A stretch of DNA of 25,277 nt, taken from positions 1-25,277 of the IMG/VR virus record IMGVR_UViG_3300005916_000016; one strand, given 5' to 3'. Below, piece by piece: positions 1-19,515 of this stretch (position 1 is its first letter; every line of letters starts with the position of its first letter). The position numbers and the translations under genes were made by a program. This DNA is from a virus (lineage: Duplodnaviria; Caudoviricetes). The notes beneath the pieces were generated by a model. The model did not search any database. It worked only from the letters and a program-made list of their open reading frames with translations, and was not told the origin of the DNA.

Positions 1-202
1 AGCCGAGTGTAATGACATGACGAATGAAGAGAAAAAAAAGTGGGGTGTCGGCGCAATATATATACTAATATACTAATATGCCTGAAATGCCTGATATGCA
101 TGATGTCTTGCTTTGTTTTGTTTGGTTTTGTTTTTCTAGAAGGAGTGACGGTTTCATCGTCACTTCCATGAAGTGCTCTTTTTTTTATTCCCGTAGCTCA
201 CA

Positions 203-237
203 TAAAAAAAGGCAGAGTGTGGCATTCACCCCGCCTA
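203..237 (-). terminator. Rho-independent terminator closing the leftward gene cassette
   Basis: Minus strand reads AGGCGGGGTG-aatgcca-CACTCTGCCT followed by a T run: 10-bp stem with two G-U pairs that work on the minus-strand RNA; lies downstream of the leftward genes. Confidence 0.8.
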
Positions 238-432
238 AATTTGTGCTAACTGCTCCTACTGAATATACTAGGATTTATACTGCCTTAGCTTTGGCAGATA
301 CCTGTTTTTGACTGAGATTTTGCAAGAATATCAATCCTTACCGAAGATATGTATGGCTAATCAATGTTGAGTTTGATTCTGATTAGTTTAATCATCTGGA
401 CGATGAAAGCGAATAACAATAAAGCTGGGATT

Positions 433-897
433 TTATTGCTGGTTTTCATGCTTTTTTTCAACTTTGTCTGCAACGTCCAAATCTATTTCCAGAACGTTTT
501 CTGCTTTCGGGTCAATACCCATTGGCTTGAGCCATTTTTTCATGAAGGCTCGTGCTGACGCCTGCGCTGGGGTATACTTGACTTGTTGCGATGACATGAG
601 GCTCTTGAGGTTTACGCCTTTCATTTTGCTCATGTCTATTGTGAACTCAACTTTTTCTGTGCCCGTGTTGAATAGGTACTTACCTACAACGGCACTGCCA
701 AGAGTGTTGAAGAAAGCAAGAAGGGGATTCTTGTCTTTTATGCAATAGTCAAATATTTGACATACTACGGCTTTCACTGATTCAGGGTATTCTCTGACTA
801 TGTCAAATAGCGACACCGTGATGTTCACGTTCGCAAGGGATTGGGTATCACCCGTGCAAACGGCTTTTTTTTGTTTATTTTGATGTTGGTTATCCAT
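433..897 (-). CDS. Hypothetical early protein, 154 aa (MDNQHQNKQKK...)
   Basis: Part of track ORF 433..1167. Start moved to ATG 897 because the cassette-type RBS GAAAGGAG lies just upstream (~905-912). The 5' extension overlaps a hairpin-dense region. Confidence 0.75.
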   Translation of the reverse strand: MDNQHQNKQKKAVCTGDTQSLANVNITVSLFDIVREYPESVKAVVCQIFDYCIKDKNPLLAFFNTLGSAVVGKYLFNTGTEKVEFTIDMSKMKGVNLKSLMSSQQVKYTPAQASARAFMKKWLKPMGIDPKAENVLEIDLDVADKVEKKHENQQ

Positions 898-1463
898 ATT
901 TGGTACTCCTTTCGTCTCATCCGAGACGTTGCGATTTACTTGAGTGTTACTAGACTTATCTTTTTGATAAGGTTCAGACTCACCTTGAGCCTGTTGCGCA
1001 TTTTCTCTGCGACTTCGCTTAACTTCTTCCTGCCTAATTGCACGTCTGCTCATCGAGTGGGGCGATTGACCCCGATTGTGGCGGTTAGGTTTCCTAACTC
1101 TTATAGGTGCGTTAAGCATGAACGGTACTTGGTTATTTGCACGTTTTGAACTCATTTTGGACTCCATTATCTTCGTGATATTGATGAAGCTTTGATAAAA
1201 TAACCTATGTCATAACCGTGCAATTTAGCAAAATTGGCGTGATGCAATGGAAATGCAAGAGCCTGCGATTGCCTATAATCTTATTGGGTATGGCATGGTT
1301 TACGGGATGTCGTCAACCTTAAGAGGCGTTTCCCGATTTGCAGGTTTGCTATACCTGCCTTATTCGATAGTCTGCGGTGTTTTATCAGCCTGAAGAGGCT
1401 TTGGTCGATGATGTTTTCGATGAAGTTGTGCTAATCTCGCTTGTCAGGCGCACTTAGTTGAAA

Positions 1464-1658
1464 CTAGCGCTGTGTGGCAGTTTTGCGAAAACTGCTTATC
1501 ATTCTGCGTGCGACTCTGATTCTTTGGTGGTACTGTTCTCTCACTCCTTTGGGTAAGACACCACTGGAGTTTAAGAGTAACTGATATTTACGAACTGAGT
1601 CGATGCAACCCTGAGCTTTGAGTTGTTCAGGCGTTGGCTTACTATTTACGAATGTCAT
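1464..1658 (-). CDS. Small basic hypothetical protein, 64 aa (MTFVNSKPTPEQ...)
   Basis: Track ORF 1464..1703; in-frame ATG at 1658 preceded by GAAAGTGAG, a variant of the cassette RBS. Confidence 0.6.
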   Translation of the reverse strand: MTFVNSKPTPEQLKAQGCIDSVRKYQLLLNSSGVLPKGVREQYHQRIRVARRMISSFRKTATQR

Positions 1659-1777
1659 AGTTATGCTCACTTTCTGCCAGATAGACTGGCAATTAACACG
1701 CACAAGCGATTGACGGGACTCCGCACTACGCTTTGTTTTTATGTGCGCTTACTGAGATGCGTTGCTGAATAAACCTT

Positions 1778-2020
1778 TTAGCTGGTGTAACGGATGGTTG
1801 ATTTTGCCCAACCGACACCTCTGCTTGGTATGTTGATAGAGGTGACTTCACTTATTACACCGTCTTTTTTAGCTAAAAGGGGATTGCTGATTAACTTTTG
1901 TTCGTCTAAGTCTTCAAGAGTCCCGCCTATTAAGGCTCGCACTTCATCAATGACCATTTCTGGTCTGACATTGAATCTGAAGGTTCTCCTGACAGTGACG
2001 AACACTGCGTCATTCTTCAT
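1778..2020 (-). CDS. Hypothetical protein, 80 aa
   Basis: ORF with strong RBS GAAAGGAGTTTATC-ATG, same orientation as its neighbours. Confidence 0.75.
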   Translation of the reverse strand: MKNDAVFVTVRRTFRFNVRPEMVIDEVRALIGGTLEDLDEQKLISNPLLAKKDGVISEVTSINIPSRGVGWAKSTIRYTS

Positions 2021-2075
2021 GATAAACTCCTTTCAAGTTTATGATGCTTTGATACGATATAAGATATGCTGGATT

Positions 2076-2183
2076 TCATTTGGAAGCTAGTAAGAGAAAT
2101 AACATTGTTATTACCCATACCAATCCGATTACAGATAGCATTGCAATTGTTATCTGTGATGCTATTGGAAGCATACTAATCAT
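2076..2183 (-). CDS. 35-aa single-pass membrane peptide (MISMLPIASQITIAMLSVIGLVWVITMLFLLLASK)
   Basis: Translated by hand, below the track cut-off; RBS GAAAGGAGTTTACC-ATG; almost entirely hydrophobic. Confidence 0.65.
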   Translation of the reverse strand: MISMLPIASQITIAMLSVIGLVWVITMLFLLLASK

Positions 2184-2516
2184 GGTAAACTCCTTTCGAG
2201 TTAGGATAGTTCTTTGGTATGACACTTACGGTGGTTAGCAAACTCATAATGGTTTGCCGATAGTTTGATTCTTATTCATGGCAAGACTCCTTTCATAGTG
2301 TGAGTTAACTGAAGCCGATTTACTCGGAACAGTAACATGGACAAATGGATACAATATACTCAAGCACACGGTTTGTTTCGCTTTTTCATCAGCACACGTA
2401 TGGATTTACGGGCTGTTGCGGTTTGTAACGGTGCTCAAGAACGACACGCCGAGTATTCTTACTGCGGGGGTGTCTATTTACTGAGTAGCACGCTGGCTCT
2501 TATTAGCCGAGGGTGT

Positions 2517-2876
2517 TTACGCAGAGAAGAGTTTCTCTAACCAGCGACATGCACTAAGCACAACTTGGGCGTTGCGCTTATTGTTGCATACAATGATTGG
2601 TTTCTTCGATGTGGTGATTTTCAATAGTGTCGGCACGACTTTTTTGTCGACTTTCTTTATCTTGTCGAATAACCATGACTTGTAAGACTCCGTCGAAAGT
2701 TTCTGCGAGCAGTCTTTACTAATCCCAAATGGATTCGCAAGAGGCGAATTACCGAGTTTCCAATCTTTGTTCTTTCCGCCAATGTAGAAAAAATCACCAC
2801 CTTTGTTAGCTGGTAGTGACTTCATAGCTTTTTTATCGGCGAAATGTTTCAGCAAGTACACTTTAATCTGTTTCAT
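2517..2876 (-). CDS. DUF4326-like protein (divergent), 119 aa
   Basis: Motifs YIGG...SPLANPF...Y.SWL...IIVC match the DUF4326 pattern (YIGR..S..NPF..Y..WL..L.C); RBS AAAGGAG before ATG 2876; ATGA overlap with the upstream gene. Confidence 0.7.
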   Translation of the reverse strand: MKQIKVYLLKHFADKKAMKSLPANKGGDFFYIGGKNKDWKLGNSPLANPFGISKDCSQKLSTESYKSWLFDKIKKVDKKVVPTLLKITTSKKPIIVCNNKRNAQVVLSACRWLEKLFSA

Positions 2877-3373
2877 GACAAACTCCTTTTTGATTTGTAA
2901 CAAACTACTAAATTGTCAAAACTGGATAGGAATTCAGATAGAGTTTCTCTGCATTCTTGCGGATTTAATCGTCCGAATCCAGCACCTGCCAGTGGCATAC
3001 GAATGTGGGTGGCAGGATTATTTTTTGCGTATTGGGCTAACATGTGGGCTGAGTATTTCAAGAGAAAAACCGAAGCTTTACTACTCCAGTTATACTTGAC
3101 TTGGAATAAGCCAATGCCTACCTTATTATCGGTAGGGTTTTGGAGAACTGTAAACCCGTATAGAAAAATATTAAGATTGTTGGTCGGCTTACTGCCCACT
3201 CTACGAATGTGGACGGCACTCCTTACCGCAATCCCGGGTATACGTTGAGTTAGCTCATATGCACAACCTCTACCCATGACTAATCCTTTCTTAGCAAGGA
3301 AGCCATTGGTGGAAACAATTATAAGTTGTGGGTGCGAGACTAGCTTAAATAACTCTTCACGTTTAAATAACAT
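2873..3373 (-). CDS. Macrodomain ADP-ribose-binding/hydrolase protein (DarG/TARG1-like), 166 aa
   Basis: Motifs STNG...VMGRGCA, FQVKYNW and MPLAGAGFGRL match macrodomain signatures (N..GvMG.G.A, FPTK.HW, P.lG.G.G.L); RBS GAAAGGAG before ATG 3373. Confidence 0.85.
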   Translation of the reverse strand: MLFKREELFKLVSHPQLIIVSTNGFLAKKGLVMGRGCAYELTQRIPGIAVRSAVHIRRVGSKPTNNLNIFLYGFTVLQNPTDNKVGIGLFQVKYNWSSKASVFLLKYSAHMLAQYAKNNPATHIRMPLAGAGFGRLNPQECRETLSEFLSSFDNLVVCYKSKRSLS

Positions 3374-3411
3374 AATCAAACTCCTTTCAAAATCTCAAAA
3401 CCATTAGTTAG

Positions 3412-3461
3412 CAAAAAAAAACAAACAAAAAACATAGAAGTAGCAAGTCCGTTGCCTACTC
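3412..3461 (-). terminator. Terminator/attenuator-like hairpin plus long T tract upstream of the macrodomain gene
   Basis: Minus strand AGTA(G)GCAA-cggac-TTGCTACT followed by TCTATGTTTTTTGTTTGTTTTTTTTT. Confidence 0.5.
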
Positions 3462-3720
3462 CAGCTTGTGTTAGGGTCTAATTCTGATTGAAGCTCCTAG
3501 TGTCCGTGACTTGTCCTACTCCCCTTGCACTGTTGAGACCCCCGTAGGGGTTATCTTTCAGCTACTCTTGCTCAGTTGATACGTCGCCTTTTGGTTTTGG
3601 ACTTCTGTGTTCGCAACGCACAGAACCCCCACTATCCGTTTGCGATTACTTAGAGGGGCTCTCTGTTCTTCGTCATTCGGGGCAAAGGCGCACCCACTCT
3701 GTTGTCAAAGTTCTGCATCG

Positions 3721-3750
3721 TATATAAGACACCATGTTTGAGATTGTCAA
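3721..3750 (-). promoter_or_regulatory. Putative sigma70-type leftward (early) promoter
   Basis: Minus strand perfect TTGACA (3750-3745), then TATATA after an 18-nt spacer; the -10 is imperfect. Confidence 0.45.
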
Positions 3751-3843
3751 GGTCGACAACTTTTTTGTTTCACGTCGTCCTTGATAACCCTAACAGGGCG
3801 ACTGTTCTTGTCGTCTCAACCCGTAGGGCGACTTGTCGACTGG

Positions 3844-3854
3844 TGTGTTATGAT
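3844..3854 (+). promoter_or_regulatory. Extended -10 element (TGTG-T-TATGAT)
   Basis: Matches TRTGnTATAAT with one mismatch; no good -35 at canonical spacing. Confidence 0.4.
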
Positions 3855-4209
3855 GCTCTCTGAACTTATACCTGACAACAGCGTCGGGGCGACACCCGCT
3901 TGACGTGCTAAGAACAGAGAGGGTTTTCCACTCAAGTAACAAGCGAACAGGTGCAGTGGGGTGTGTGTTGTGAACGGTTTATAAGAAGTTCAGTCCCTGC
4001 CAAAAGGTGAGCGTAAAACAACTGACCAGGAGAAGTGTTCTGAAAGTAACCCTCACTGGGGTTGAGACGGGTTTTGCAAGGGGATTAAGGCACTTAGAAC
4101 ACGGTCACGGAGCGGAAGTCTGAGTCAGACTGTCTCGAACACTTGAGCAGAGTAGGCAACGGACGTTTTTGCTACTTCGCACTTCAATTCCAACGTACCT
4201 TAGTCATCT

Positions 4210-4650
4210 CATTGTGCTGTTTGTGCTCACGGAGTGAGCCCGTAACAGTGGTGACAGTTTCATCGTCACGTCTGTTGCGGTTAGCGTGCTTGGTTTTATC
4301 AACGGTGTGTCTGTTCACTCTGTTGCGTGCTCTTATGGTGTAAGAGTGGCAGACTTTGCCATTCACTCTTTCTTACTGCCAGTAAGAGGTAAGCATAGAC
4401 AAGGGGACGAAGGCTTGGTTTACGGCTGTCTAGGGGACAACAGATGGCATTATAAGCGTGACCAGCGGTAGGTCTACATGCTAAAGTATGCTGAATTCCC
4501 TTTGCCGTCAATGGATTCAGGCTGACCTCTGCCACTTGTAGGTGACAACACGCGGTCTCGGCTTGTTCTTCCTGCCTGTTGTTCAGTACACGTGGGTAGG
4601 GGTGGTCGGTGAGGGACGAGCCGACATACAGCTCACTGTGCTCGCCTTGC
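4210..4650 (+). other. Hairpin-dense non-coding domain (structured RNA or ssDNA)
   Basis: Stems at 4225-4239, 4251-4269, 4269-4277/4438-4446, three adjacent hairpins at 4330-4387, and 4558-4569/4612-4624; no ORF with a credible RBS. Confidence 0.55.
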
Positions 4651-4820
4651 TCTCTGTAATTATATATATAAAAGATAATATATATCATCATCATGGTCTT
4701 CACCCCCCTCTTCATGCCCACCCTCCCTCCACCAACATACCAGTATAAACCGCAACACGAAATCTCAGTTTTCTAGATAACCTGTGACATCCTTTGTCAT
4801 CGGTACACCGAAAAGAACCC

Positions 4821-4849
4821 TTGCTAAATGAAGACAAATAGGATACAAT
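4821..4849 (+). promoter_or_regulatory. Sigma70-type promoter for the packaging operon
   Basis: TTGCTA-17 nt-TACAAT, about 40 nt upstream of the first rightward gene. Confidence 0.7.
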
Positions 4850-4887
4850 TTATCCTAATACTAATACGGCAGTAAAATAGAGGATTA

Positions 4888-5223
4888 ATGTTTGAATCAA
4901 CGACTTGTGGGATTACTAACATGATGGGATTGATAGGCGGTCTCGTTAGTGTTTTGACTGCCATTTATATGCTAACTGCGAATAAACGTAAAGTAGATTC
5001 GGAGTCACTATCGAATACATCGGAGGCATACGAGAAAATGGTGGACTCTTACGAAAAACGAGTAGACAGGCTCTTGAAGAGAATCATAGAACTAGAGGGA
5101 AGAGTCCTAAAGCTTGAAGATGAAGTAAAAGCAAAGCAAGGTATTATTGATAAGCTTGAAGCTATCGAAGCTATCGCCGCGAAAAAGTGCGCCCAAGAAC
5201 AAAAGATTACCCCAGAGAAATAA
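4888..5223 (+). CDS. Membrane-anchored coiled-coil protein (holin/XhlA-like architecture)
   Basis: N-terminal TM segment (MMGLIGGLVSVLTAIYML) followed by a heptad coiled coil; RBS AGAGG. Confidence 0.7.
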   Translation: MFESTTCGITNMMGLIGGLVSVLTAIYMLTANKRKVDSESLSNTSEAYEKMVDSYEKRVDRLLKRIIELEGRVLKLEDEVKAKQGIIDKLEAIEAIAAKKCAQEQKITPEK

Positions 5224-5642
5224 TGAATATAGTGTCTGACGTCACATTCCCAGCGATAATAAGCCACATAGCAACAGTACCAAATTCACCCCAAGCACGG
5301 GTGTATTTTACTATAAACTCGGGGTACGGATTGCAGGCTGGTCAACTCATGAAGTGGAGAGATGACAGAAGGAGAGTGGAAGTTATTATAGCGGGTGCTG
5401 AGGGATATGAGGATAGGATTGAGTTCTTTGCTAATATTTATAAAGTTGGCACTACTAGAGATAAAGGACAGCTGGTTGTACTTCAGTATCCTACTAAGAA
5501 ATTTGAAGACTTATACGAAACCCTGACAGGTATACATGAACACGGAAGCGGATTGCTTGTGGTCTCATGTTTCCCAGGGGAAAGCGAATATGATGATGGA
5601 GAAAAAAGACAAGGCTACAACAGAAAATCTCGTAGAAGGTAA
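5223..5642 (+). CDS. Hypothetical protein, 139 aa
   Basis: ATG overlaps the upstream stop (TAATG); part of track ORF 5187..5642. Confidence 0.65.
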   Translation: MNIVSDVTFPAIISHIATVPNSPQARVYFTINSGYGLQAGQLMKWRDDRRRVEVIIAGAEGYEDRIEFFANIYKVGTTRDKGQLVVLQYPTKKFEDLYETLTGIHEHGSGLLVVSCFPGESEYDDGEKRQGYNRKSRRR

Positions 5643-6039
5643 GAAAGGCGGAGCTCTACAGAAGAGAGCATTGATGACCGCTCTGATTAATAAGCTGAAG
5701 ACAATCCCTAAGGGGCAGTCTAAGTCAGCTGAAGAGCTTATTGCGGAAATGATTGTTGATGTTGCTCTCACTGGAGAGGTTCAGCTATTACCCTCTAAGA
5801 TAGAGAACAAAGCTCCTGTGATGTTGTTCTCACCTAGAGACTGGTATGAGTGCGTGAAGTGGTTATTTGACAGAGTTGAAGGTAAACCTGTACAGGCGGT
5901 TGATGCTTCCATAAGGTCATCAATCTTCTTTGATGGTTTAGATACTATGGAGGACGAGAATGACGGAAATTCTAAGATGGACGGAAATGACAAGCTTCCA
6001 TCCGAAACAGAAGGAATGTCTAAAGACGCTAAGGAGTAA
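5590..6039 (+). CDS. terS: Putative terminase small subunit
   Basis: Immediately upstream of TerL; helical protein with 'KWLFDRVEGKPVQAV' typical of small terminases; start chosen at the ATG run at 5590. Confidence 0.7.
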   Translation: MMMEKKDKATTENLVEGKKGGALQKRALMTALINKLKTIPKGQSKSAEELIAEMIVDVALTGEVQLLPSKIENKAPVMLFSPRDWYECVKWLFDRVEGKPVQAVDASIRSSIFFDGLDTMEDENDGNSKMDGNDKLPSETEGMSKDAKE

Positions 6040-7306
6040 ACGCTTCGTAATGTACGGAGGCGCTCGTGGCGGTGGTAAGTCATACCTATTAAGGTGGTGG
6101 CTTGTTCAGGTTATGCTAGAACTCTTTAAGAAGGGCATAAAGAAACCGCACGTGTTCTTAGGTTGTGAGTCTTATCCTGTTCTTGCTGATAGGCAGATAT
6201 CAAAGATAAACATTGAGATGCCTCGCTGGTTAGGCGAAGTGAAGAAGACACAATCTGATGGTCTTGCTTTTGTACTTAGGGATGAGTTTGGTGGTGGAGT
6301 CATGGTGCTCCGAAACTTAGACGACCCCTCCAAGTACCTTGGTGCTGAATATGCAGCTATTGGTATAGACCAGATTGAAAAGGTAAACAAAGAAGTGTTC
6401 GATATTCTTCGCGGAAACCTTCGTTACCCGGGAGTCACCAGCACTAAGTTCCTATGCACAGCTAACCCTGGAGGCAAAGGGCATCAGTGGGTGAAGAAAC
6501 TGTGGATTGATAGAGATTTCCCAGATGAGTTGAAAGCACTGGAAGACCAGTTTGCGTTTGTTCAGGCTCTCCCGCAAGATAATGAGAGCCTTGACCCGCA
6601 GTATTGGGAAGACTTGAAGACGTTACCAGAAAAACTGAGGAAGGCTTGGCTCGAAGGAGACTGGGAAGTATTCTCTGGGCAGGCATTCCCTGGATTTGGT
6701 GATGACCATATCATAAAGGGAAATTTGGTAATTCCGCCAAATTGGATAAAGATTGTCGGAATTGATAGTGGTTATACCAAGCCGTTCGGGGCTGTATGGC
6801 TTGCAAGAGACCCCGATGTTGGCAGGTACATAGTATATAAGGAAGTGAAGATAGCTAGATTATCCGATAGCCAGCAGGCTCGGTATATTCAGGAGATTAC
6901 AGCTCTCGAAAAAATCCATGTACGCTATGGAGACCCCTCTATGTGGAACACTAAGAGCGACGCAAAGAAAGGTCTCACGTCAACTGCCGATAACTTCGGA
7001 GATGAGGGCGTATACCTAACCCGTGCAGACAATAACAGAATCAGCGGGAAGAGGAAGATTGACAGACTCCTGATGAATCTCCCAGACTTTAAGCCAGGAT
7101 TACAGGTTCATGAATCGTGTAAAGGGCTTATAGCAGAACTAAAGTACCTTGTTTTGGACGAGAAGAAGGTGGAAGACGTCGATACAGACCAAGATGACCA
7201 CCTCTATGACGCCCTTAGGTATGCTCTGAGTTCTGCAAGAGGTAAGTTTCAGGATGATAATGTTGCTTTAAGGAGGTCTCCATGGGAGAGAATTACGACG
7301 ATTTAA
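5960..7306 (+). CDS. terL: Terminase large subunit
   Basis: Walker A YGGARGGGKS, Walker B-like AAIGIDQ, motif C TANPGG, nuclease motifs GIDSG and DHLYDALRY; RBS GGAGG. Confidence 0.95.
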   Translation: MTEILRWTEMTSFHPKQKECLKTLRSKRFVMYGGARGGGKSYLLRWWLVQVMLELFKKGIKKPHVFLGCESYPVLADRQISKINIEMPRWLGEVKKTQSDGLAFVLRDEFGGGVMVLRNLDDPSKYLGAEYAAIGIDQIEKVNKEVFDILRGNLRYPGVTSTKFLCTANPGGKGHQWVKKLWIDRDFPDELKALEDQFAFVQALPQDNESLDPQYWEDLKTLPEKLRKAWLEGDWEVFSGQAFPGFGDDHIIKGNLVIPPNWIKIVGIDSGYTKPFGAVWLARDPDVGRYIVYKEVKIARLSDSQQARYIQEITALEKIHVRYGDPSMWNTKSDAKKGLTSTADNFGDEGVYLTRADNNRISGKRKIDRLLMNLPDFKPGLQVHESCKGLIAELKYLVLDEKKVEDVDTDQDDHLYDALRYALSSARGKFQDDNVALRRSPWERITTI

Positions 7307-9657: not shown

Positions 9658-10529
9658 TGAGTTATTATAGTACCTGGGGATTAGGTGGCGGTGGTTCAGT
9701 ACCAAAATCTAAGTCATCCTCTAACTATTATAGTTATGGAGCACCTAAACCTAAACCTAAACCTAAGCCTAGGCAAGTATACGACCCAGTGGCGAGTAAA
9801 TCACCTGCGTCAGGAAAACCACGTTACTCCCCAGAGTCAAGTGCGCCGCCACCAAGCGACAGCCAGTCTAATGTTCCGTCTAACGCGACTGGGACTTCTG
9901 GTAGTGGTAGCTATTGGGCTGAGTACTACAAGAAGAGGGTGCTCGATGCTTCTGGTCAGCAGGCTAAAACAAAACCCGCCGACCGTTACTCTCCTTGGAA
10001 CTTGTTTTCAAAGAGTACTGGGGTCTTTGCTATGGACAACCCAGTTAACCGTGGTCTTTGGAATGCTTGGAAGGGCGCTACGTACGACCCTACGAGGCAG
10101 GGTGGTTTTGGTAGAAACTCTCCCTTCAGTAACCCATTCTTAAACAAGAATTCTGGGGGCTTTGAGTATGGGCGTGGTATGGGGGCAAAGAGTGACTACT
10201 TCCTACAAGAACAGGCTGACGCAGTGTTCAGAAATCAGTGGAGAACTGGTATCGACCCCAATCAAAACAGCAGGTGGCGTGAGCTCGAAAACAGAATACT
10301 AGACCCAGAGCACGTTCTTTATTTTGAAAACGAATTCTTGCCAAGGGGAGACCCAAACCCATACTGGAATCCGTACGAAGAGACTGGTGGCGGTGGTGGA
10401 TATGGCGGTGGTGGATATGGCGGTGGGTATGGCGGTGGTGGGTACGGTGGTTATAGCCCCTACGATTCGTATAGCCCATCCAGCCCGTACTCTAGCTGGT
10501 ATAAACAGTTAATAAACTGGAGAATCTAA
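9657..10529 (+). CDS. Low-complexity Gly/Ser/Tyr-rich protein, putative ejection/internal virion protein
   Basis: RBS GGAGG, TAATG coupling at both ends; disordered composition; sits next to the giant protein. Confidence 0.65.
   Translation: MSYYSTWGLGGGGSVPKSKSSSNYYSYGAPKPKPKPKPRQVYDPVASKSPASGKPRYSPESSAPPPSDSQSNVPSNATGTSGSGSYWAEYYKKRVLDASGQQAKTKPADRYSPWNLFSKSTGVFAMDNPVNRGLWNAWKGATYDPTRQGGFGRNSPFSNPFLNKNSGGFEYGRGMGAKSDYFLQEQADAVFRNQWRTGIDPNQNSRWRELENRILDPEHVLYFENEFLPRGDPNPYWNPYEETGGGGGYGGGGYGGGYGGGGYGGYSPYDSYSPSSPYSSWYKQLINWRI
10386..10454 (+). repeat. Coding tandem repeat (GGCGGTGGTGGATAT)n encoding GGGGY units
   Basis: About 4-5 imperfect 12-15-nt units visible in the sequence. Confidence 0.8.
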
Positions 10530-13500
10530 TGAACGACGTGCGAAAACATCTAAGTGATGACGGAAAGATTAGGAGATACGGAGGGAGCAATCCCACAGCG
10601 CCCAGGGTAGGGAGCTGGACTAAATCCCCCCGATTCATGGCTGCCTGGAAAACTCAACAGCAACCTAAACGTAGCGGCGGAACTAAGCAGAAGCGGCTAA
10701 GGGATGGGATGGAGTTAGCTGCTGGTAGAGAGCCTCGTGGCATGGTTGGCGACCTACGCCATTTAGCTGGCTTACCACAGGATTCTTATAAAAGAGTCGT
10801 GGCGCGTGCTGGAATGAGCGATATTGATATATCTGGCATCAATCCAAAAGCATACGATACGTACCTCGATATGATTGGCGGGCAATACGCAGAATCTATC
10901 GTGCCAGGAAGAATGATAACTGGGAAGAAGGGAGAGCCAATAAACTACTACGCTGACCCCTTAACCCTTGACACCTATAACACAATCATAGAGAACAGTG
11001 AAGACCCAGACAGTCTTCCACCATGGCTTCCTAAAGAAGGTATCCAAGAAGCCTATAAATTCCTAGCTTATACAAACAAAGGGAAGAGCGTTGAAGATTG
11101 GTCAATCGACAAGACCAGTGATGTGTATAATTTCTTGTCTAATTTAGAATCGCCGCCTGCTAGTATGTTATTCCCTCACCAGTATATGAACGATTTAGCT
11201 GATGAGGAATATAGGAGAAAATATAACGCAGGCGGGATGGATAACCTGAGTAAATTGCAGAAACTTCTCATGTCTCCGTTCTACTCACAGCCTTGGATGG
11301 AACTACCCAAACAAGAGATGACGAGAGAGCAGAAGAATAAGATGTTAGGGAGGGATGTTGGTGGCAGTATTCTTGCCGCACTGACGACAGCGCCAATGGC
11401 TGCTATTGCGGTTGGTACTATTGCTGGTGTGAAAATAGGAACTCTAATGCTTCCGTTCATAGCTGTTATGGCGGCGGCGAACTTTGCTGACAGACAACTG
11501 GAACTAGATTCCCCAGGTCTGGCGTCAGTAAATGCGTTTGCTGGTAACGTGCTTAATGCTCTATCTAGAGGTTCGGAGCAGATATATGGAACTCTCGAAC
11601 TAGCTGCTACGGACGAAGAGTTTAAGGAAGTTCTGAATGGGGTTAGTGAGTACTCAATGAGTGAGTACGCGAAGTCTGCATGGCAGGCTAGTCAAATGCG
11701 CTGGGATGTCATGAGAGAGAGCACGATTCTCGACATAGCTGGCGGTCAAAGAACTGACCCAGATGAGATATGGAGAATCGAGCAAGGTGTTCCTAACCCA
11801 GTGAAAGTGGACAAAAGCTGGAAGTGGGGAAAGGAAGCCACGAACGCTATACAAGATGAACTATTAGCTGGTGCTGAAGTCGATGAAGTCATATCACACT
11901 GGGAAGAGGAGTTTGGATTCCAGGGCGTCTTGTCCGACTTGGTTATGCAAAACATAGTAGACCCGCTGAATGTCCTGCCAATGATGTCAAACAGAATACC
12001 ACGTGCTATAGCTAACGGTAAGGTTTCTAAGGTTATAAAGGCTATGGATGCTGCGGGTGACTTTGCCAAACTCGCGAAGGCTATGGATTATGCCGACGAT
12101 GCTTCCGATATAAACAAATTCATAGATGCTTTCAGCAAGGTAGACTCTGCGGAGCTTATAGCGAAGCTACAAGCTACCCCAGAAGGCGCTGATTTTCTGA
12201 AAATCTATGGGAAGATGGACGATATGCGTCTGGCGGGTAACATAGTGAAAGCTGCTGACAACGCTAGAGGTAATGCGTTTATCGACGCGATGCCGTTCCC
12301 AGTTAACATGGTTGCTGGGAGTATATATAAGTTAGTAAAAGGGGAATCTGGCTCTTACGGTGGGGCAGCGGCTGTATTTGAGAACCTGAAGAAAATCTAT
12401 ACAGACGGGTATGCACAGGACGCGGCGAGACAGATTGTTACAAAGGGTGGTAAGGTGAAGAACTTTTACGCGCCGCCTACGTGGTCTCCTATTGAGAGAT
12501 GGTTAGGCGGTATAGATAAGAGCGGTATGCCCAGTTGGGCTACCCCGACGATTCTGCCTGAAGGTAGCGGTTTACTAAAGAAGATTTCTATTTACCTTGG
12601 AAGCCAAACGAATAGCTCTAAGGCTATCAAGTTTGCCCAAAACATGATGACGCATGTATCTGGGATGATGACTGGTCTAAAAGCAGAAGACCAAGTTGGT
12701 ATCCTTTATAGGATGGGAATGCTAGAGGTTGGAGATGGGGCTATAAAAATTGAAGCCAAGCTGAACGGCTTGAGGAAACTGAAGGGGGAGTATATACCAC
12801 TAGACGCAGACCTCGGTGAAGTGTTCGGCACAGCTATGCAAAGAATAGAAATAGACCCAGCTGTCTACGGTTCACAAGCTTCATTTGTGTTTCGGGATGC
12901 TATCAGGAAGGCTATCTCTAAGGGTCTAATCGGTAACGAGTTCCAGAAATGGATTGGAACTACTGACTCCAGAGCTAAATTGAACCAGATGGCTAACGCT
13001 CTAGGGATAGAGCCTAATAAGGTTCTCGATTACGTTGAGAAAGGGGACACAGCTACTCTTTGGAAAAAATTCAAGGGCGCGACGGCGGAAGAACCTATAG
13101 CTGGGTTTGATAGATTCTACGCTATGGGGGACGGTGACGCTACATCTTCAATAGATACTTTGTTGAAGATATTTACGTGGGACGCAGAGAATTCTAGGAA
13201 GATGCCGTGGAATGATGAGTTATTTCACGTTAACCTGCTTAATAAGCTCTCTAAACACGTTGGCGAATACGCTACGAATAGGTACATGTTGACCGAAAAG
13301 AGCGCTATAACGAAATTAATCAGGTATACGAATATCCAAAGGCAGATTCAAGGTGCTCTTGTTCTTGGACTGAATCCAAGATACGCGATATATAACGCTA
13401 TAAACAACATTGTGACCCGTGTTGCCTCTGACAACTTTGGTTACATGAGGTTGACTGATATAGATAACTATAACAAAAGGATGGGATTTGCGAGTTGGAA

Positions 13501-16500
13501 CGACGCAATCGACTTTGGTGACTGGAAATTCGAGGGCGAGGGCATGGATATTCAGAAGACCAAGATAAAGATTGACGACATTAACTATAAATTCGAGCAC
13601 GAGTGGATGGAAAAACTCGCCAGAGGAGCTAACGCAGTTTCTATTTTCAAAAAACTGTCTAATAACATAGAGTCTGCGCATGCTAGAAAATCCTACATGA
13701 ACGGCTTGAAGAAGTATTGGGACAATACGTGGGCTGGTGCTATCCCAGGGATGGATAACATCAACCTGCCGTCTAATGTGAAGAAATCCATTATGGCTAA
13801 AGTGATAGGCTCTCTGAATATGGATGAAGTGAGAACTGGTATATTCAAAGGCAACCCTGAAGAGATAGATATTAATATCTACACAAGAAGAGTTGCTGAG
13901 AATATGGCTAAGGACACCATCCTCACGCCAGAAATTCTTTCAGAGATAATTGATGATAGTGTCCTGCGGGCTTTGAAGACAGAGTTAGCAGGAGCACGAA
14001 CGGAAGGCGACGTCGCTCGCGCTATTGAAAGGGTGCAAAGCGGTAATCTGGACTTCATAAGAAGGGCTATGGACGAAGATTTCAAGACAAGGGGAGCAGA
14101 TATTCAGGCACGCATGAAGGACTCTGGTGCTTACACTGCTGCGAAAGAGTACGTTGATATGCAAATGTATCACCAAATGGAACATATAGCTCACTTCAGA
14201 GCTATTGATGCTGCCATATCCTCTATGGAAGGAATGACCTACAAACAAAGGAGCAAGGTATGGGACGGGATAGAGTTATCTGAAAATAAGCGATTCAAGG
14301 TACTTAATAAATGGCTCAGGAATTCAGAGGAGAACATCTTCGGCGCTGTGGCAGAATTAGACCCAGGCTCAAAAGCAAGGTACGATACACACCTTACTTC
14401 AATGAGTATGCTAGAAGAAATGTGGAGGAGGTTTTATAAGAAGCGTGGCACTATATGGCGCAAAACCTTCACCGCAGAGTACGTAGACGTCGAAGCTAAG
14501 AACTTGGCTTTTGATGCGGCAAGGCTGGAAGTCGACGGGTTGGCTGATACTGCCTACGACTTCGAGATGAGGATGTATGATAGGTCCGCTAATGCTCTGT
14601 TTGGCGGCGGTACGAGACCACCTGTTGCTCCAGATGCTGTTGGAGAATCTACTGGAATCAAAGCTGTTGGCGGTGAGGCTCAACCAGAAATCCCAATCGG
14701 TTCGCCAGAATCTCCTTACACGTATGACGCAGGGACTCTTAAGCGTTTTAGGGCGGGCGTTCCTGTAAAACCAGCGTATAGGATTGGTGAAGACGTCTTT
14801 GTTGGTGTTTTGCACGTTGATGCGATAAACGCTGCTAAGCAAAGCGGAGGTTACGACCAACCTGATGTGGGTGTAATTCGTAGACTCAGCGATGGCAAAG
14901 AATTCGGTATTGTTGAAGACGGTGACCTTGGTTTTTACGAGACGTCTAGCGGAAAATTCTTGACGCCCGAAGAATCGCGAGCAAAGTATGATGTAGCGTC
15001 ATCAAAAGAATTCCTTGATAAGTACCCGCTCGAAGACATGCCCGTAGATAGCGGTCTTCCTAGAGGTATGACTATCCAAGAAGTTAACACTGTTCAACAA
15101 GCAAACAGATGGTTCAAGAAAGTAGGCGATAACGGTCTCGTTACGTCGGAAAAGGCATGGAAGAAAGGGACAGCAGGGGTTTTGACGGAAAAACTAGAAG
15201 CTATGGGTATCAAAACGAAGACAAAGTTTGCTGGTGGGGAAGAGGTCTACGTAGAGATAAGCGAAAACGACTGGGAAATGATAAAGGATTTAGCCTCGGA
15301 GTCTCAGAGGATAGCAGACGTCGAGGGCGTCGAGATACCATACACTAGGACAGATGGCAGTACTATGCCAGAATCGCACATTGATGCTGTAAAGACGTGG
15401 TTAGAGCACGTCAAGAACGCAAGAAAGGATATGATTGAAGCTGTAAGAGCGCACAGGAAGAAGATGATAGACGACCCGCCTACGAGTTATGGAGACCGTT
15501 TGGCTAGAAACAGTAAGTTCTATAACGAAGACTACACTAAGTTGATTATGGAGCTGCATAACGCTGAGATTGAGGGCGCTATGTTTGCAGTATCCTCAAA
15601 AGGGAGAGTTCCTAGCCAAATCAATAACGGCAGCATTACGAAGATGGAAGCATACATGAACCACCTGAAGCCGATGTTGGACGGTATAGGTACAGAGATT
15701 GCTAACGATATAAGAAGTGATGACCTTTACGACGGTAGTAAACTAACGACAGGACAAGCTAACGAAATAAACTCGTGGTTGAATCAGGTTGACCAGAACA
15801 TGAGGTCAAATAAATTTCAAGCCGTGAAGTACGGCGAAGCCATGAAGGACTACACGATGCTTGATTACACCCATAGAACTGGGTGGGACGAGGCTTACTC
15901 GGTACTCTTCCCGTACCAATTCTGGTATACGCACTCATTTAGAAACTGGGCAATGAGGACTCTCGATAACACGAGTATGTTCTCCTCATTCTACAGGCTC
16001 AGAGATGCCCAGAAACAGATGGGCAAGATTGGAGTTCCAAGTAGGATGGAGAATAAACTACGCCTTCCTTGGGCATTTTTACCAGAGTGGGCTGGAGGGT
16101 CAACATACTTTGACCCGTACTCGCAATTCTTCCCGCCTAGCTCTCTATTCTCAATGCTTGACGTATTTAATGACGATAAGAGCCAACTCTATAGGACTGC
16201 CTATTATCACCTATCAGATATGGCTAAGCTCGGAGAGATTACGGAAGAACAGGCTATGAAGGCTAGAGAAACAGGAGAGGGCGATGAGTGGGATATGGCT
16301 CTCGAATGGGCGAACACAAACACTGGTTTTTCTGACCCGTATACACTCGCTTCTCAGTTCATGCAGCCAGCTATGAATATAGATATTGGTATTAACCTTC
16401 TTAAAGGTACGCCAGAGGAGATACCGCCAACACCTATATTGAATCTGTCTAGGGAGATGAAGAGCATGGTAGGTGAAGATACCGCTGCTGGTACGATACT

Positions 16501-17710
16501 TGGTGCTCCTGCTTGGGCAGAAGGCAAAGTTCGCCAAGCTTACGGTATGACACCAGCGCAAGCACAGTTTGGCTCATTCGGCGATTATTACGTGAAGAGA
16601 CAGCTTGCTGGCATGATGACTATGAGCGAGATAAGCCCAGAGAATTATTCAAAGACACTACTGGATATGCAAAATGGGAAGTACGACTCTGAGTGGTACA
16701 AAATTGCTTATTCGAGAGCTTTAGAAGAGGTGAACATGAAGCAACCAGGGTATCTAGGCATGATGGCTGCAAAAGGAGGAGCTAGTTTGGCTGTTATAGG
16801 GGCTACAACTTTCGTATCTATGTTCCCACATGGCGTCATCACCCAAGGCGAACTCGAATACAGAGGACACCAGAGGCAAAACAACAGAGCGTGGGAGATT
16901 TATAATGCCACTGGAGATAAGACTGCTATGAATGAATTCTATGACGAGCACCCAGAGTATCGTTTGCGCTCTAATATTTTCATTGATGACCCGAAGTTGC
17001 AGGCTAAGAGTCTATTAATAACTAATATATGGGACTTATATACTGGCTTAGATAAAGCTAACCAAAAGATAGCTATAGAAGCATTCGGACAAGAGTTCCA
17101 GAGAGCTTTCTTTGATGACGCGACGAAGGACGAGTTCTCAGTAGAACTAGATACGCTTGCTAGATGGGCACAGATGCTGGGCTCTTCAATCCCAGAATCT
17201 ATCCCAGAAGTACAGGAAGCGTTCTTGGAAGAACCAGTACACGAACTAGATATGTGGGACGACCAACATGCCAAGGACTACGGAGATTTCATCAAGGAGA
17301 GGGAAAAGTTTTTCCCGACTTGGTACGTCCTACAATCAAAATACTATGACCTACCCGAAAACGAGAGGTATCAGTTTACAAGAGACTTCCCCCAATTCCA
17401 AGAATATCGAGACTGGAAAAAAGATTACCTGAAGAAAAAACCAGGTATCTCTTCGGTAGTAGAGTCTGGTTCTATAAACTACGGTACTAAAGATGGGCTG
17501 AAAGGGTTTTTGACGGCAGAGGAAGCGGAATCTATCCCTGCCTTGTTATCAAATAGCTTGATTGCTCACTTCACATTCGACCAACCTTTAGGGGCTGGTG
17601 CTCTAATGTTGTTAGAGGATATGTGGATAACAGCGGGTAAACCTGGAAAAGATTTCAAAAGATGGTTAAACTACGAAATCGCTCCAAATTACACGCTACT
17701 TGTAAAATAA
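10529..17710 (+). CDS. Giant (2393 aa) internal virion / DNA-ejection protein
   Basis: Mostly helical, within the virion module, with a hydrophobic segment (SILAALTTAPMAAIAVGTIAGVKIGTLMLPFIAVMAAA) and a 'LDY...LFPYQFW' region resembling C-terminal parts of large podophage injected proteins. Confidence 0.7.
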   Translation: MNDVRKHLSDDGKIRRYGGSNPTAPRVGSWTKSPRFMAAWKTQQQPKRSGGTKQKRLRDGMELAAGREPRGMVGDLRHLAGLPQDSYKRVVARAGMSDIDISGINPKAYDTYLDMIGGQYAESIVPGRMITGKKGEPINYYADPLTLDTYNTIIENSEDPDSLPPWLPKEGIQEAYKFLAYTNKGKSVEDWSIDKTSDVYNFLSNLESPPASMLFPHQYMNDLADEEYRRKYNAGGMDNLSKLQKLLMSPFYSQPWMELPKQEMTREQKNKMLGRDVGGSILAALTTAPMAAIAVGTIAGVKIGTLMLPFIAVMAAANFADRQLELDSPGLASVNAFAGNVLNALSRGSEQIYGTLELAATDEEFKEVLNGVSEYSMSEYAKSAWQASQMRWDVMRESTILDIAGGQRTDPDEIWRIEQGVPNPVKVDKSWKWGKEATNAIQDELLAGAEVDEVISHWEEEFGFQGVLSDLVMQNIVDPLNVLPMMSNRIPRAIANGKVSKVIKAMDAAGDFAKLAKAMDYADDASDINKFIDAFSKVDSAELIAKLQATPEGADFLKIYGKMDDMRLAGNIVKAADNARGNAFIDAMPFPVNMVAGSIYKLVKGESGSYGGAAAVFENLKKIYTDGYAQDAARQIVTKGGKVKNFYAPPTWSPIERWLGGIDKSGMPSWATPTILPEGSGLLKKISIYLGSQTNSSKAIKFAQNMMTHVSGMMTGLKAEDQVGILYRMGMLEVGDGAIKIEAKLNGLRKLKGEYIPLDADLGEVFGTAMQRIEIDPAVYGSQASFVFRDAIRKAISKGLIGNEFQKWIGTTDSRAKLNQMANALGIEPNKVLDYVEKGDTATLWKKFKGATAEEPIAGFDRFYAMGDGDATSSIDTLLKIFTWDAENSRKMPWNDELFHVNLLNKLSKHVGEYATNRYMLTEKSAITKLIRYTNIQRQIQGALVLGLNPRYAIYNAINNIVTRVASDNFGYMRLTDIDNYNKRMGFASWNDAIDFGDWKFEGEGMDIQKTKIKIDDINYKFEHEWMEKLARGANAVSIFKKLSNNIESAHARKSYMNGLKKYWDNTWAGAIPGMDNINLPSNVKKSIMAKVIGSLNMDEVRTGIFKGNPEEIDINIYTRRVAENMAKDTILTPEILSEIIDDSVLRALKTELAGARTEGDVARAIERVQSGNLDFIRRAMDEDFKTRGADIQARMKDSGAYTAAKEYVDMQMYHQMEHIAHFRAIDAAISSMEGMTYKQRSKVWDGIELSENKRFKVLNKWLRNSEENIFGAVAELDPGSKARYDTHLTSMSMLEEMWRRFYKKRGTIWRKTFTAEYVDVEAKNLAFDAARLEVDGLADTAYDFEMRMYDRSANALFGGGTRPPVAPDAVGESTGIKAVGGEAQPEIPIGSPESPYTYDAGTLKRFRAGVPVKPAYRIGEDVFVGVLHVDAINAAKQSGGYDQPDVGVIRRLSDGKEFGIVEDGDLGFYETSSGKFLTPEESRAKYDVASSKEFLDKYPLEDMPVDSGLPRGMTIQEVNTVQQANRWFKKVGDNGLVTSEKAWKKGTAGVLTEKLEAMGIKTKTKFAGGEEVYVEISENDWEMIKDLASESQRIADVEGVEIPYTRTDGSTMPESHIDAVKTWLEHVKNARKDMIEAVRAHRKKMIDDPPTSYGDRLARNSKFYNEDYTKLIMELHNAEIEGAMFAVSSKGRVPSQINNGSITKMEAYMNHLKPMLDGIGTEIANDIRSDDLYDGSKLTTGQANEINSWLNQVDQNMRSNKFQAVKYGEAMKDYTMLDYTHRTGWDEAYSVLFPYQFWYTHSFRNWAMRTLDNTSMFSSFYRLRDAQKQMGKIGVPSRMENKLRLPWAFLPEWAGGSTYFDPYSQFFPPSSLFSMLDVFNDDKSQLYRTAYYHLSDMAKLGEITEEQAMKARETGEGDEWDMALEWANTNTGFSDPYTLASQFMQPAMNIDIGINLLKGTPEEIPPTPILNLSREMKSMVGEDTAAGTILGAPAWAEGKVRQAYGMTPAQAQFGSFGDYYVKRQLAGMMTMSEISPENYSKTLLDMQNGKYDSEWYKIAYSRALEEVNMKQPGYLGMMAAKGGASLAVIGATTFVSMFPHGVITQGELEYRGHQRQNNRAWEIYNATGDKTAMNEFYDEHPEYRLRSNIFIDDPKLQAKSLLITNIWDLYTGLDKANQKIAIEAFGQEFQRAFFDDATKDEFSVELDTLARWAQMLGSSIPESIPEVQEAFLEEPVHELDMWDDQHAKDYGDFIKEREKFFPTWYVLQSKYYDLPENERYQFTRDFPQFQEYRDWKKDYLKKKPGISSVVESGSINYGTKDGLKGFLTAEEAESIPALLSNSLIAHFTFDQPLGAGALMLLEDMWITAGKPGKDFKRWLNYEIAPNYTLLVK

Positions 17711-18537: not shown

Positions 18538-19515
18538 ATGAGTTACACACTCGCAGATTTCAGTCGCTTAGCGACTCAACCGCTTAAGAAAGCGGTTATC
18601 GACATTTTCCGACGTGAATCGTTCATGCTGGACACTCTCGCTTTTGAGACCCCAGGAACGCTGAATATCGAAATGTTGCGCACGAAATCACTACCTACGA
18701 TTACGGCACGCGAGATTGGTGAAGCTTACACAGAATCAAAAGGAATCACAGAGAACCTACAGGAGAGAGTATCCTTCCTCGGTGGTTACATCGACGTTCC
18801 CAAAGAATACATCAAAGCCAAAAACCAAGTAGTGAACCAACGAGCGTTACAGACAGAGATGTTTGTTACCTCAATGGCATACAAGTTCAACGACATGTTC
18901 ATTAACGGTAATCCTGAAACCAACCTGAAAGAAATGACTGGCATACACTATCGCCTCATAAACGATTTAGACGCTGCTCAATCTATCGACGCTGGTGGAG
19001 CGGACTTATCACATGGAACACCTGCTGATTTACTCGCAGCTCAGATAAAAATAGTTGACTTGCTTGAAGAATTAATACATACAGTAGACGGACATAAAGC
19101 AGACGTTTTGCTTATGAATTCCACGACCTACTTACGATTACTCTCAGCTCTAAGGGCTAGGGGTTACTGGGCGACGACCAAAGATTCATTTGGACGAAGC
19201 TTGCCGACATTCGGCGAAGGTGGACCAAAAATCGTAGACATCGGTGTAAAGAAAGACCAAAGCACGCTTATTATGCCTAACACCGAATTAGCTAACGGTA
19301 CAGCCATCACTGGCGCAACCTTTACCAGCATCTACGCCTTGAAACTCGGCGACCCATTCTTAAAGGGTTGGCAGTTTGACAGCGTGAACGCTGAGGACAT
19401 TGGGCTGCTAGAAAATGGCGTTTCGTACCGAAGTATCATAGATTGGGGTTGCGGTATTTATTTCTACAATCCTCGCTCTATGGCACGCATATACAATATT
19501 CAAGCTGCCGAATAA
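18538..19515 (+). CDS. Major capsid protein (HK97 fold, BPP-1-like)
   Basis: 325 aa; N-terminal pattern TLADF..L...KAVIDIF..ES..L..L.F, LGGYIDV, FING; follows the scaffold and precedes a cement-like gene. Confidence 0.9.
   Translation: MSYTLADFSRLATQPLKKAVIDIFRRESFMLDTLAFETPGTLNIEMLRTKSLPTITAREIGEAYTESKGITENLQERVSFLGGYIDVPKEYIKAKNQVVNQRALQTEMFVTSMAYKFNDMFINGNPETNLKEMTGIHYRLINDLDAAQSIDAGGADLSHGTPADLLAAQIKIVDLLEELIHTVDGHKADVLLMNSTTYLRLLSALRARGYWATTKDSFGRSLPTFGEGGPKIVDIGVKKDQSTLIMPNTELANGTAITGATFTSIYALKLGDPFLKGWQFDSVNAEDIGLLENGVSYRSIIDWGCGIYFYNPRSMARIYNIQAAE

Follow-up and report, generated by a model that had tools for sequence, protein, structure and literature searches.

The window analysed here is a 25,277-nucleotide (nt) stretch of a tailed-phage genome (IMG/VR record IMGVR_UViG_3300005916_000016), in which a block of leftward genes that begins with a macrodomain gene is headed by a 742-nt imperfect inverted repeat at positions 3437-4178. 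This repeat is predicted to fold into one long rod, and we propose that on the + strand, which serves as template for the leftward genes, the rod is a single-strand promoter or priming site for host RNA polymerase, similar in kind to the Frpo and ssp elements of conjugative plasmids. We put the probability of this reading at roughly 0.4. It draws on the rod itself, on an excess of G-T over A-C oppositions between its arms, on two promoter boxes at its tip, on the absence of a consensus duplex promoter for the gene block and on the families to which the genes belong. By sequence and by context, the rod is not a member of the Frpo/ssp group.

Four nested inverted repeats make up a single fold-back, with folding z-scores of -10 to -17. 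The initial annotation had noted hairpins in this spacer, and the fold turns out to be stronger than it described. The folding energies are -357 kcal/mol for the + strand and -315 for the - strand as RNA, and -181 and -166 as DNA, and in each case 0 of 20 shuffles match. The main axis holds about 258 pairs, with a longest unbroken helix of 15 bp, bulges mainly on the 3' arm, and largest internal loops of 7x3 and 2x8. The rod is single-copy both in the window and in G001, a linear record of 46,591 bp that is rated 100% complete and whose first 6,000 bases are identical to the window. An assembly artefact can be ruled out given that the arms are only about 68% alike, G001 is identical and contigs of other runs cover the rod; those of run X2 span 3398-3790 and 3788-4362. 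No variant was seen within the rod across the eight metagenome runs compared.

When one arm is aligned with the reverse-complemented second arm and wobble pairs earn no bonus, the result is 232 Watson-Crick pairs and 59 mismatches, namely 19 G-T, 5 A-C and 35 others. The excess of G-T over A-C has a P of 0.003 at even odds and of about 0.02 once the genome skew is allowed for; it persists under four scorings (20-21 versus 5-6) and amounts to 7 versus 0-1 where the oppositions are isolated in helices. This is moderate evidence that the + strand has been selected to pair. Rather unlikely, in our judgement, is an origin as a worn inverted duplication of a promoter with some 300 nt of leader, or as a relic captured with the macrodomain block, in which case the fold would be unselected and the arms would be weak divergent duplex promoters. 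The arms are indeed near copies of each other through the promoter region, and the + strand skew at four-fold sites would by itself favour G-T by about 1.3. Moreover, the rod and gene block are missing from five relatives, and similarity to the closest relative, L005 (93% identity in the terminase), whose sequence begins to the right of the rod, ends at about 4345, with only 78 nt of L005 extending beyond. However, A-C oppositions are rarer than decay predicts. When a perfect palindrome was simulated to decay neutrally and symmetrically, with transition shares of 0.5-0.7 (four-fold sites give 57/83), an A-C share as low as that of the rod came up in 2 of 900 runs, and the G-T excess likewise in 2 of 900. 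The gaps between the arms are also lopsided: the right arm carries the insertion in 16 of the 24, and 9 of the 24 are exactly 4 nt long. The inserted stretches of the promoter copy are predicted to form folds of their own, leaving a promoter spacing of 17-18 bp.

This spacing joins the two boxes near the tip of the rod (Table 1). The -35-like hexamer of the 3' arm pairs with the perfect hexamer of the left arm at a mean probability of 0.77-0.99 across three energy sets and two temperatures. From there to the extended -10 box the distance is 62 nt in the linear sequence and 17-18 along the folded path, as the predicted side hairpins loop out 45 nt of spacer. The DNA fold of the + strand pairs both boxes with the left arm, 17 bp apart and facing down that arm into the genes. 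The T6 loop supplies an A-tract upstream of the -35 at the usual distance of an UP element, and may serve as one. A spacing of 17-18 was found in 873 (25 C) and 741 (37 C) of 1000 sampled DNA structures with the Mathews 2004 energies and in 582 and 356 with those of Mathews 1999; the template-side spacing is 18 nt in 875-969 DNA and 593-683 RNA samples per 1000. Along the folded path the promoter scores 12.5. No duplex site in 1-4900, whichever the strand, scores more than 10; the site at 4821 reaches 9 and the - strand fold 7. The scoring was devised after the boxes had been noticed, and three energy sets and two strands were examined. As duplex DNA the -35 at 3750-3745 (-) has no such partner, since neither the 17- nor the 18-nt register offers a -10 in which the second A and the last T are both present.

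The start codon of the macrodomain gene lies 64 nt from the rod foot, and its product has template-modelling (TM) scores of 0.78-0.83 to Macro-type clusters; a match to DarG is weak (E 2e-4) and far under the cut-off. The DarT toxin modifies single-stranded DNA. Together with its DUF4326-like neighbour, the macrodomain gene is likely to form a counter-defence block, judging from family assignments. Macro and DUF4326 are both named among the viral ADP-ribose-processing domains, and DarT is described as ADP-ribosylating viral DNA (PMC9503650). Family searches assigned no family to the small leftward open reading frames (ORFs) of 433-2183. No consensus duplex promoter stands above the block at 433-3373, and the sole - strand match of the promoter scan in 1-5000 overlaps the macrodomain start, while G001 carries five duplex promoters of the form CCC-TTGACA-17-TGG-TAnnnT, all outside the window.

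Table 1. Features of the leftward block, the rod and their surroundings (window coordinates).
Feature	Position	Strand	Basis
Imperfect rod-like fold-back, 742 nt	3437..4178	+	RNA and DNA folding; identical in G001; bridged piecewise by run X2 contigs
Perfect -35 hexamer, TTGACA after CC as in the phage's duplex promoters	3745..3750	-	Sequence
T6 loop at tip	3761..3766	+	Sequence, fold
-35-like hexamer (5/6), 3' arm, predicted to pair with 3745-3750	3781..3786	+	Pair probability
Two predicted pairs of side hairpins (3788-3813, 3820-3838)	3788..3838	+	DNA fold, Mathews 2004; differs with RNA energies
Extended -10 box, TGTG then TATGAT, 3' arm	3844..3854	+	Sequence and fold
6-bp hairpin with C(GGA)G triloop	4225..4239	+	Pattern search; motif chosen after the fact
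Ordinary duplex promoter candidate for structural genes, kept in L005	4821..4849	+	Promoter scan
Macrodomain protein, first gene below rod foot	2873..3373	-	PHROG 335, E 1e-13; atlas score 0.95
DUF4326-like protein	2517..2876	-	Own match E 0.022; 7/8 best relatives pass Pfam cut-off
Small leftward ORFs with Shine-Dalgarno-like sites	2183-2076, 2020-1778, 1155 or 897-433	-	ORF scan
Small leftward ORF without clear Shine-Dalgarno site	1658-1464	-	ORF scan
Intrinsic terminator closing the leftward block	203..236	-	Folding

The mechanism that we envisage would begin with transient unpairing of the + strand, upon which the 742-base inverted repeat would fold into the rod and its tip would bring the -35 and the extended -10 to the spacing predicted by folding. 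A host RNA polymerase of the sigma-70 type could then bind and transcribe along the left arm, through the macrodomain and DUF4326 genes and the small ones, and its transcript might in addition act as a primer for the complementary strand; the remaining spacers would have no such part. The single strands would most likely be the displaced G-rich + strand of rolling-circle replication, driven by the lambda-O-like initiator (Phage_rep_O) and DnaB-type helicase (DnaB_C) that the remainder of G001 encodes. The + strand is in fact G-rich across nearly the whole genome, as expected of a strand displaced in this way. Less likely sources would be end resection or passage through conjugation. A bolder version, which we regard as doubtful, is that the ADP-ribose counter-defence genes of this tailed double-stranded DNA phage are controlled by a rod promoter that forms only while one of the strands is unpaired: two four-way junctions would set the -35/-10 register, and host RNA polymerase would fire, perhaps also priming the second strand, whenever rolling-circle replication or end resection exposes single-stranded DNA.

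Several points weigh against a single-strand promoter. Tailed phages inject duplex DNA. This one also has a primase-like ORF (L088:8201-9232, L088 being G001; recognised by eye, with no Pfam match), and may therefore need no priming by RNA polymerase. Folding z-scores do not favour the + strand, the - strand being slightly lower in one computation and the reverse holding in another, and the transition share in the neighbouring non-coding stretch relative to L005 is only 38/114, below the simulated shares. Column shuffles reach the folded-path score in 6 of 30,000 cases, but this null does not allow for descent from a real promoter duplicated long ago in inverted orientation, an event that would likewise leave boxes in both arms. 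The exact spacing of 17 depends on the energy set; with RNA energies it occurs in 236 and 77 of 1000 samples, and 21 is the commonest value. Two multi-way junctions interrupt the predicted spacer, compared with one in the Frpo1 control and none in Frpo2, and the extended -10 could belong to a plain rightward duplex promoter. Finally, no homolog of the rod was found by blastn among viral and metagenome loci or by a rod detector applied to 223 loci and, separately, to 88 stretches, and five near-complete relatives (52-57% terminase identity) lack it, with a best detector score of 43 versus 135.

The fold could also act in RNA. That the rod is a + strand RNA antisense to the leftward genes, either a long antisense transcript or a late leader, with the tip perhaps a 6S-like decoy or template, is an unlikely alternative to which the G-U bias nevertheless lends itself equally well as it does to + strand DNA. 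RNA of the + strand has the lowest folding energy, and a tandem GA/GA loop with flanking U-G pairs at 3534-3537 is an RNA-like motif. The top duplex promoter score in 1-4900 belongs, moreover, to a rightward site at 1173-1201. Yet no consensus promoter lies just left of 3437, the rod has no large central bubble, and the promoter spacing is mostly lost under RNA energies. A search against Rfam (6S, GOLLD, ROOL, ribozymes and others) gave no gathering-score match in the window, and only mir-101 at E 0.76 in 3300-4900. The rightward site coincides with one copy of a motif repeated at 1181-1202 and 2038-2059, directly upstream of two ribosome-binding sites, which reads as an extended -10 on the + strand; it is the 1181-1202 copy that yields the best score, and it would make an antisense RNA.

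Formation of the rod in the leftward mRNA (-), started from a promoter near 4688-4659 and serving as an RNase III substrate or attenuator, is quite improbable. The - strand does fold too, at z -10 to -15, a U-rich tract at 3436-3410 follows the rod foot, a TATAAT stands at 4664-4659, and relatives have leftward tRNA genes at a comparable place. On that strand, however, 19-21 wobbles turn into A-C mismatches and only 5-6 G-U pairs remain, and the 4688-4659 site is not conserved in L005. The non-coding stretch 4345-4760 is as a whole about 74% kept in L005 and has no overall folding signal, and a small hairpin at 4344-4364 shows a change from G-T to A-T.

The initial annotation had made a broader claim, namely that every long spacer of the leftward cassette folds on the template strand into stems rich in + strand G-T pairs, and that these structures may be exposed as single strands or cruciforms at genome entry. 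In this form the idea is very improbable, as shuffled controls largely refute it: a preference for + is absent from five of the six named spacers, and in none of the six stretches does the G-U share exceed that of the matching shuffles. For RNA folding, the z-scores (+/-) are -1.2/-2.8 for 913-1145, -1.7/-1.8 for 1170-1426, -3.7/-3.6 for 1675-1748, -2.6/-1.9 for 2320-2490 and -0.7/-0.7 for 4210-4650; the corresponding DNA values are -3.0/-2.7, -1.7/-1.6, -6.0/-5.8, 0.0/-1.1 and -2.6/-4.4. The + strand G-U shares of these five, each versus shuffles, are 0.18/0.18, 0.16/0.20, 0.00/0.13, 0.06/0.18 and 0.15/0.19, and that of the rod is 0.08/0.14. The impression of G-T-rich stems arose because the G+T content of the + strand is 0.50-0.59. 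A sliding scan of 120-nt windows over 1-5280 gave z <= -3 in 3 of 87 windows on the + strand and 6 of 87 on the - strand; windows of this length do not detect the rod. The hairpins of 1675-1748 are genuine, though small, equally good on both strands and without a G-T pair on +. The spacer 913-1145 falls within a stop-free frame (433-1167) with a Shine-Dalgarno-like start at 1155, and would become a leader only with the alternative start at 897; database copies of this protein are near-identical or truncated and are uninformative on translation of the first 86 codons.

What does hold is the terminator that had been used as an internal control, since 210-236 folds best on the - strand (-15.3 versus -8.4), and one element, the rod. 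For the rod the suggested analogy with Frpo stands as regards strand, position at the head of a gene block and boxes in the 3' arm by an A/T-rich tip, whereas the shuffles refute its extension across the cassette. Extrusion of the rod as a cruciform from duplex DNA is not plausible given its longest unbroken helix. Exposure on entry finds no support either, as ordinary duplex promoters serve the second leftward block, the one that includes ArdC. G-rich tracts that divide leftward from structural genes in three relatives resemble those at the ends of G001; if such tracts mark the terminus, the block would sit opposite the ArdC block and the inward-facing promoters, which would speak against a first-to-enter role. 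The parallel drawn with phage N4 fares no better, no virion RNA polymerase having been recognised. One observation in line with the broader claim concerns C(GNA)G mini-hairpins, whose loops are unusually stable in DNA. Three occur on the + strand of 3437-4650 (4 of 3000 shuffles reach that) and none on the - strand; besides the hairpin of Table 1 they are C(GTA)G loops at 3540-3550, which competes with the rod fold, and at 3820-3828. One loop of this type melts at 88.5 C in DNA (PMC10527192). Genome-wide, 23 such hairpins occur on the + strand versus 8.8 in dinucleotide shuffles; with codon shuffles the excess shrinks to 13 versus 7.3 (3/200), and a control pattern reaches 8-9/200 among 28 tests.

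Relatives were collected by terminase as 80+80 viral loci, 80 metagenome loci (31 of 64 parts scanned) and 80 genome loci (19 of 64 parts). No rod homolog was found in phage or plasmid collections. Queries with the macrodomain and DUF4326 proteins returned only G001 and two distant phages, and a DNA pattern search only G001 and the record of L005 as relatives, other matches not having been aligned one by one. The five near-complete relatives share the capsid and the large protein and have none of the five leftward ORFs, so that rod and gene block look like a lineage-specific module, perhaps an acquired one. Long gaps in relatives fold modestly, with DNA z-scores of -2 to -5, into many small hairpins or tRNAs rather than rods (14 of 18 gaps in one scan). 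A 16-19-nt match of 4343-4363 in three relatives was rejected as a chance palindrome within coding DNA. Distant relatives carry leftward tRNA or tRNA-like elements with long inserts between early and structural genes (L098:5250-5760, L176:4398-4469 and neighbours), and L098:5140-5250 is an almost perfect palindrome of 110 nt, of which the G004 stretches showed no sign. In a Ruminococcus bin from the gut, an intergenic nested palindrome of 627 nt (L315:3632-4258) has a rod detector score of 264; its sequence context is unrelated to the rod and it resembles a clostridial palindromic repeat.

Family searches place the window in a tailed phage, with the terminase large subunit at 5960-7306 and the major capsid protein at 18538-19515. 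All 21 runs listed for the region are salt-lake metagenomes; 4 of the 21 contain at least half of its words, and one is possibly the source. The best genome match of the terminase in the parts covered is a Chloroflexota bin (52%), so that a host in this phylum is only a guess. A 34.7-kb contig exists in the L005 clade. The ORF at 10529-17710 (2393 amino acids), whose C-terminal 700 residues are about 33% conserved in the five relatives, has no Pfam, PHROG, NCBIfam or PDB match and none of five polymerase motif patterns; it probably encodes an ejection protein. Elsewhere G001 encodes an endolysin, two tRNAs outside the window (L088:4477-4563 and 4642-4726) and, at the other genome end, an ArdC-type antirestriction protein fused to DUF7695 (L088:863-1891), the first large gene behind a consensus promoter. 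A TGACA-N5-TGTCA palindrome covers the -35 of several phage promoters (L088 ~250-265 and 2220-2245) and recurs in shape at 4783-4797, 25-40 nt upstream of the late promoter, where it is largely kept in L005; it is a likely operator for one regulator. Two near-identical 19-nt palindromes, GTGAC-N9-GTCAC at 145-163 and 4251-4269, bracket the leftward block, lying past the terminator at one end and past the rod at the other, and are candidates for an operator, a boxB-like hairpin or a module boundary.

Single-strand promoters for host RNA polymerase are established for conjugative plasmids, whose DNA arrives single-stranded. In listings and abstracts of the open literature we found none in a tailed phage apart from N4, which uses its own polymerase. 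If our proposal is true, tailed phages would likewise have single-stranded DNA as a regulatory state, its timing matched to the defences directed at single strands. The folded-path promoter scan can be applied to phage genomes at large.

Among known systems, the single-strand origins of rolling-circle plasmids (ssoA, ssoU) and the minus origin of M13 are elements of 150-300 nt at which host RNA polymerase makes a primer, and like them the rod is an imperfect fold-back on what would be the displaced strand. Unlike in those systems, the phage has Phage_rep_O and DnaB_C, no rolling-circle Rep was found among the ORFs scanned, and the rod is much longer. PeSL cassettes of T4-type phages likewise join a promoter and a stem-loop in a variable genome region, but those described are small, repeated and built from duplex promoters with terminator stem-loops, whereas the rod is long and single (PMC2839356). 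The promoters of the N4 virion RNA polymerase share the use of a template-strand structure, and the 4225-4239 hairpin resembles the printed P2 hairpin, although it has no adjacent A-run; N4, however, relies on a short hairpin that supercoiling extrudes and that the phage's own polymerase reads, whereas the boxes here are of the host sigma-70 type (PMC13492108).

The closest parallel is the leading region of conjugative plasmids. A blastn search of 3400-4700 against 72,556 plasmids gave nothing at E <= 1, and no relaxase was found among the ORFs scanned, which were part of those in G001 and were not accompanied by an oriT search. The rod differs from Frpo in its setting, a tailed phage rather than a site beside an oriT, in its length (742 versus about 320 nt), in its boxes, which are nearer consensus, in its single copy and in a spacer crossed by two predicted junctions. 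Analysed with the same tools, the leading region of F shows rods of 317-318 nt (Frpo1 and Frpo2), one ahead of ssb and one ahead of the gene at 64032, with rod detector scores of 55-61 and z-scores of -6.6 and -7.3 on the template strand versus -5.5 and -4.3 on the coding strand. Their feet lie 46-47 nt from the start codon, their tips are A/T-rich, and a CCC-TGGAC(A/T) stands on the 3' arm near the tip; the promoter scores are 6.5-7.5 under a looser rule and with a box assignment that is ours rather than a mapped one. These features and the functions of Frpo, ssi and ssp elements are described in PMC11541004 and PMC9849209, and RNA made from promoters of this kind can prime second-strand synthesis (bioRxiv 10.64898/2026.01.09.698686). 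The phage rod resembles the elements of F and ColIb-P9 in being one bulged template-strand rod directly above the first gene, with an A/T-rich tip, a -35-like box on the 3' arm by the tip that reads towards the foot, and likely counter-defence genes downstream.

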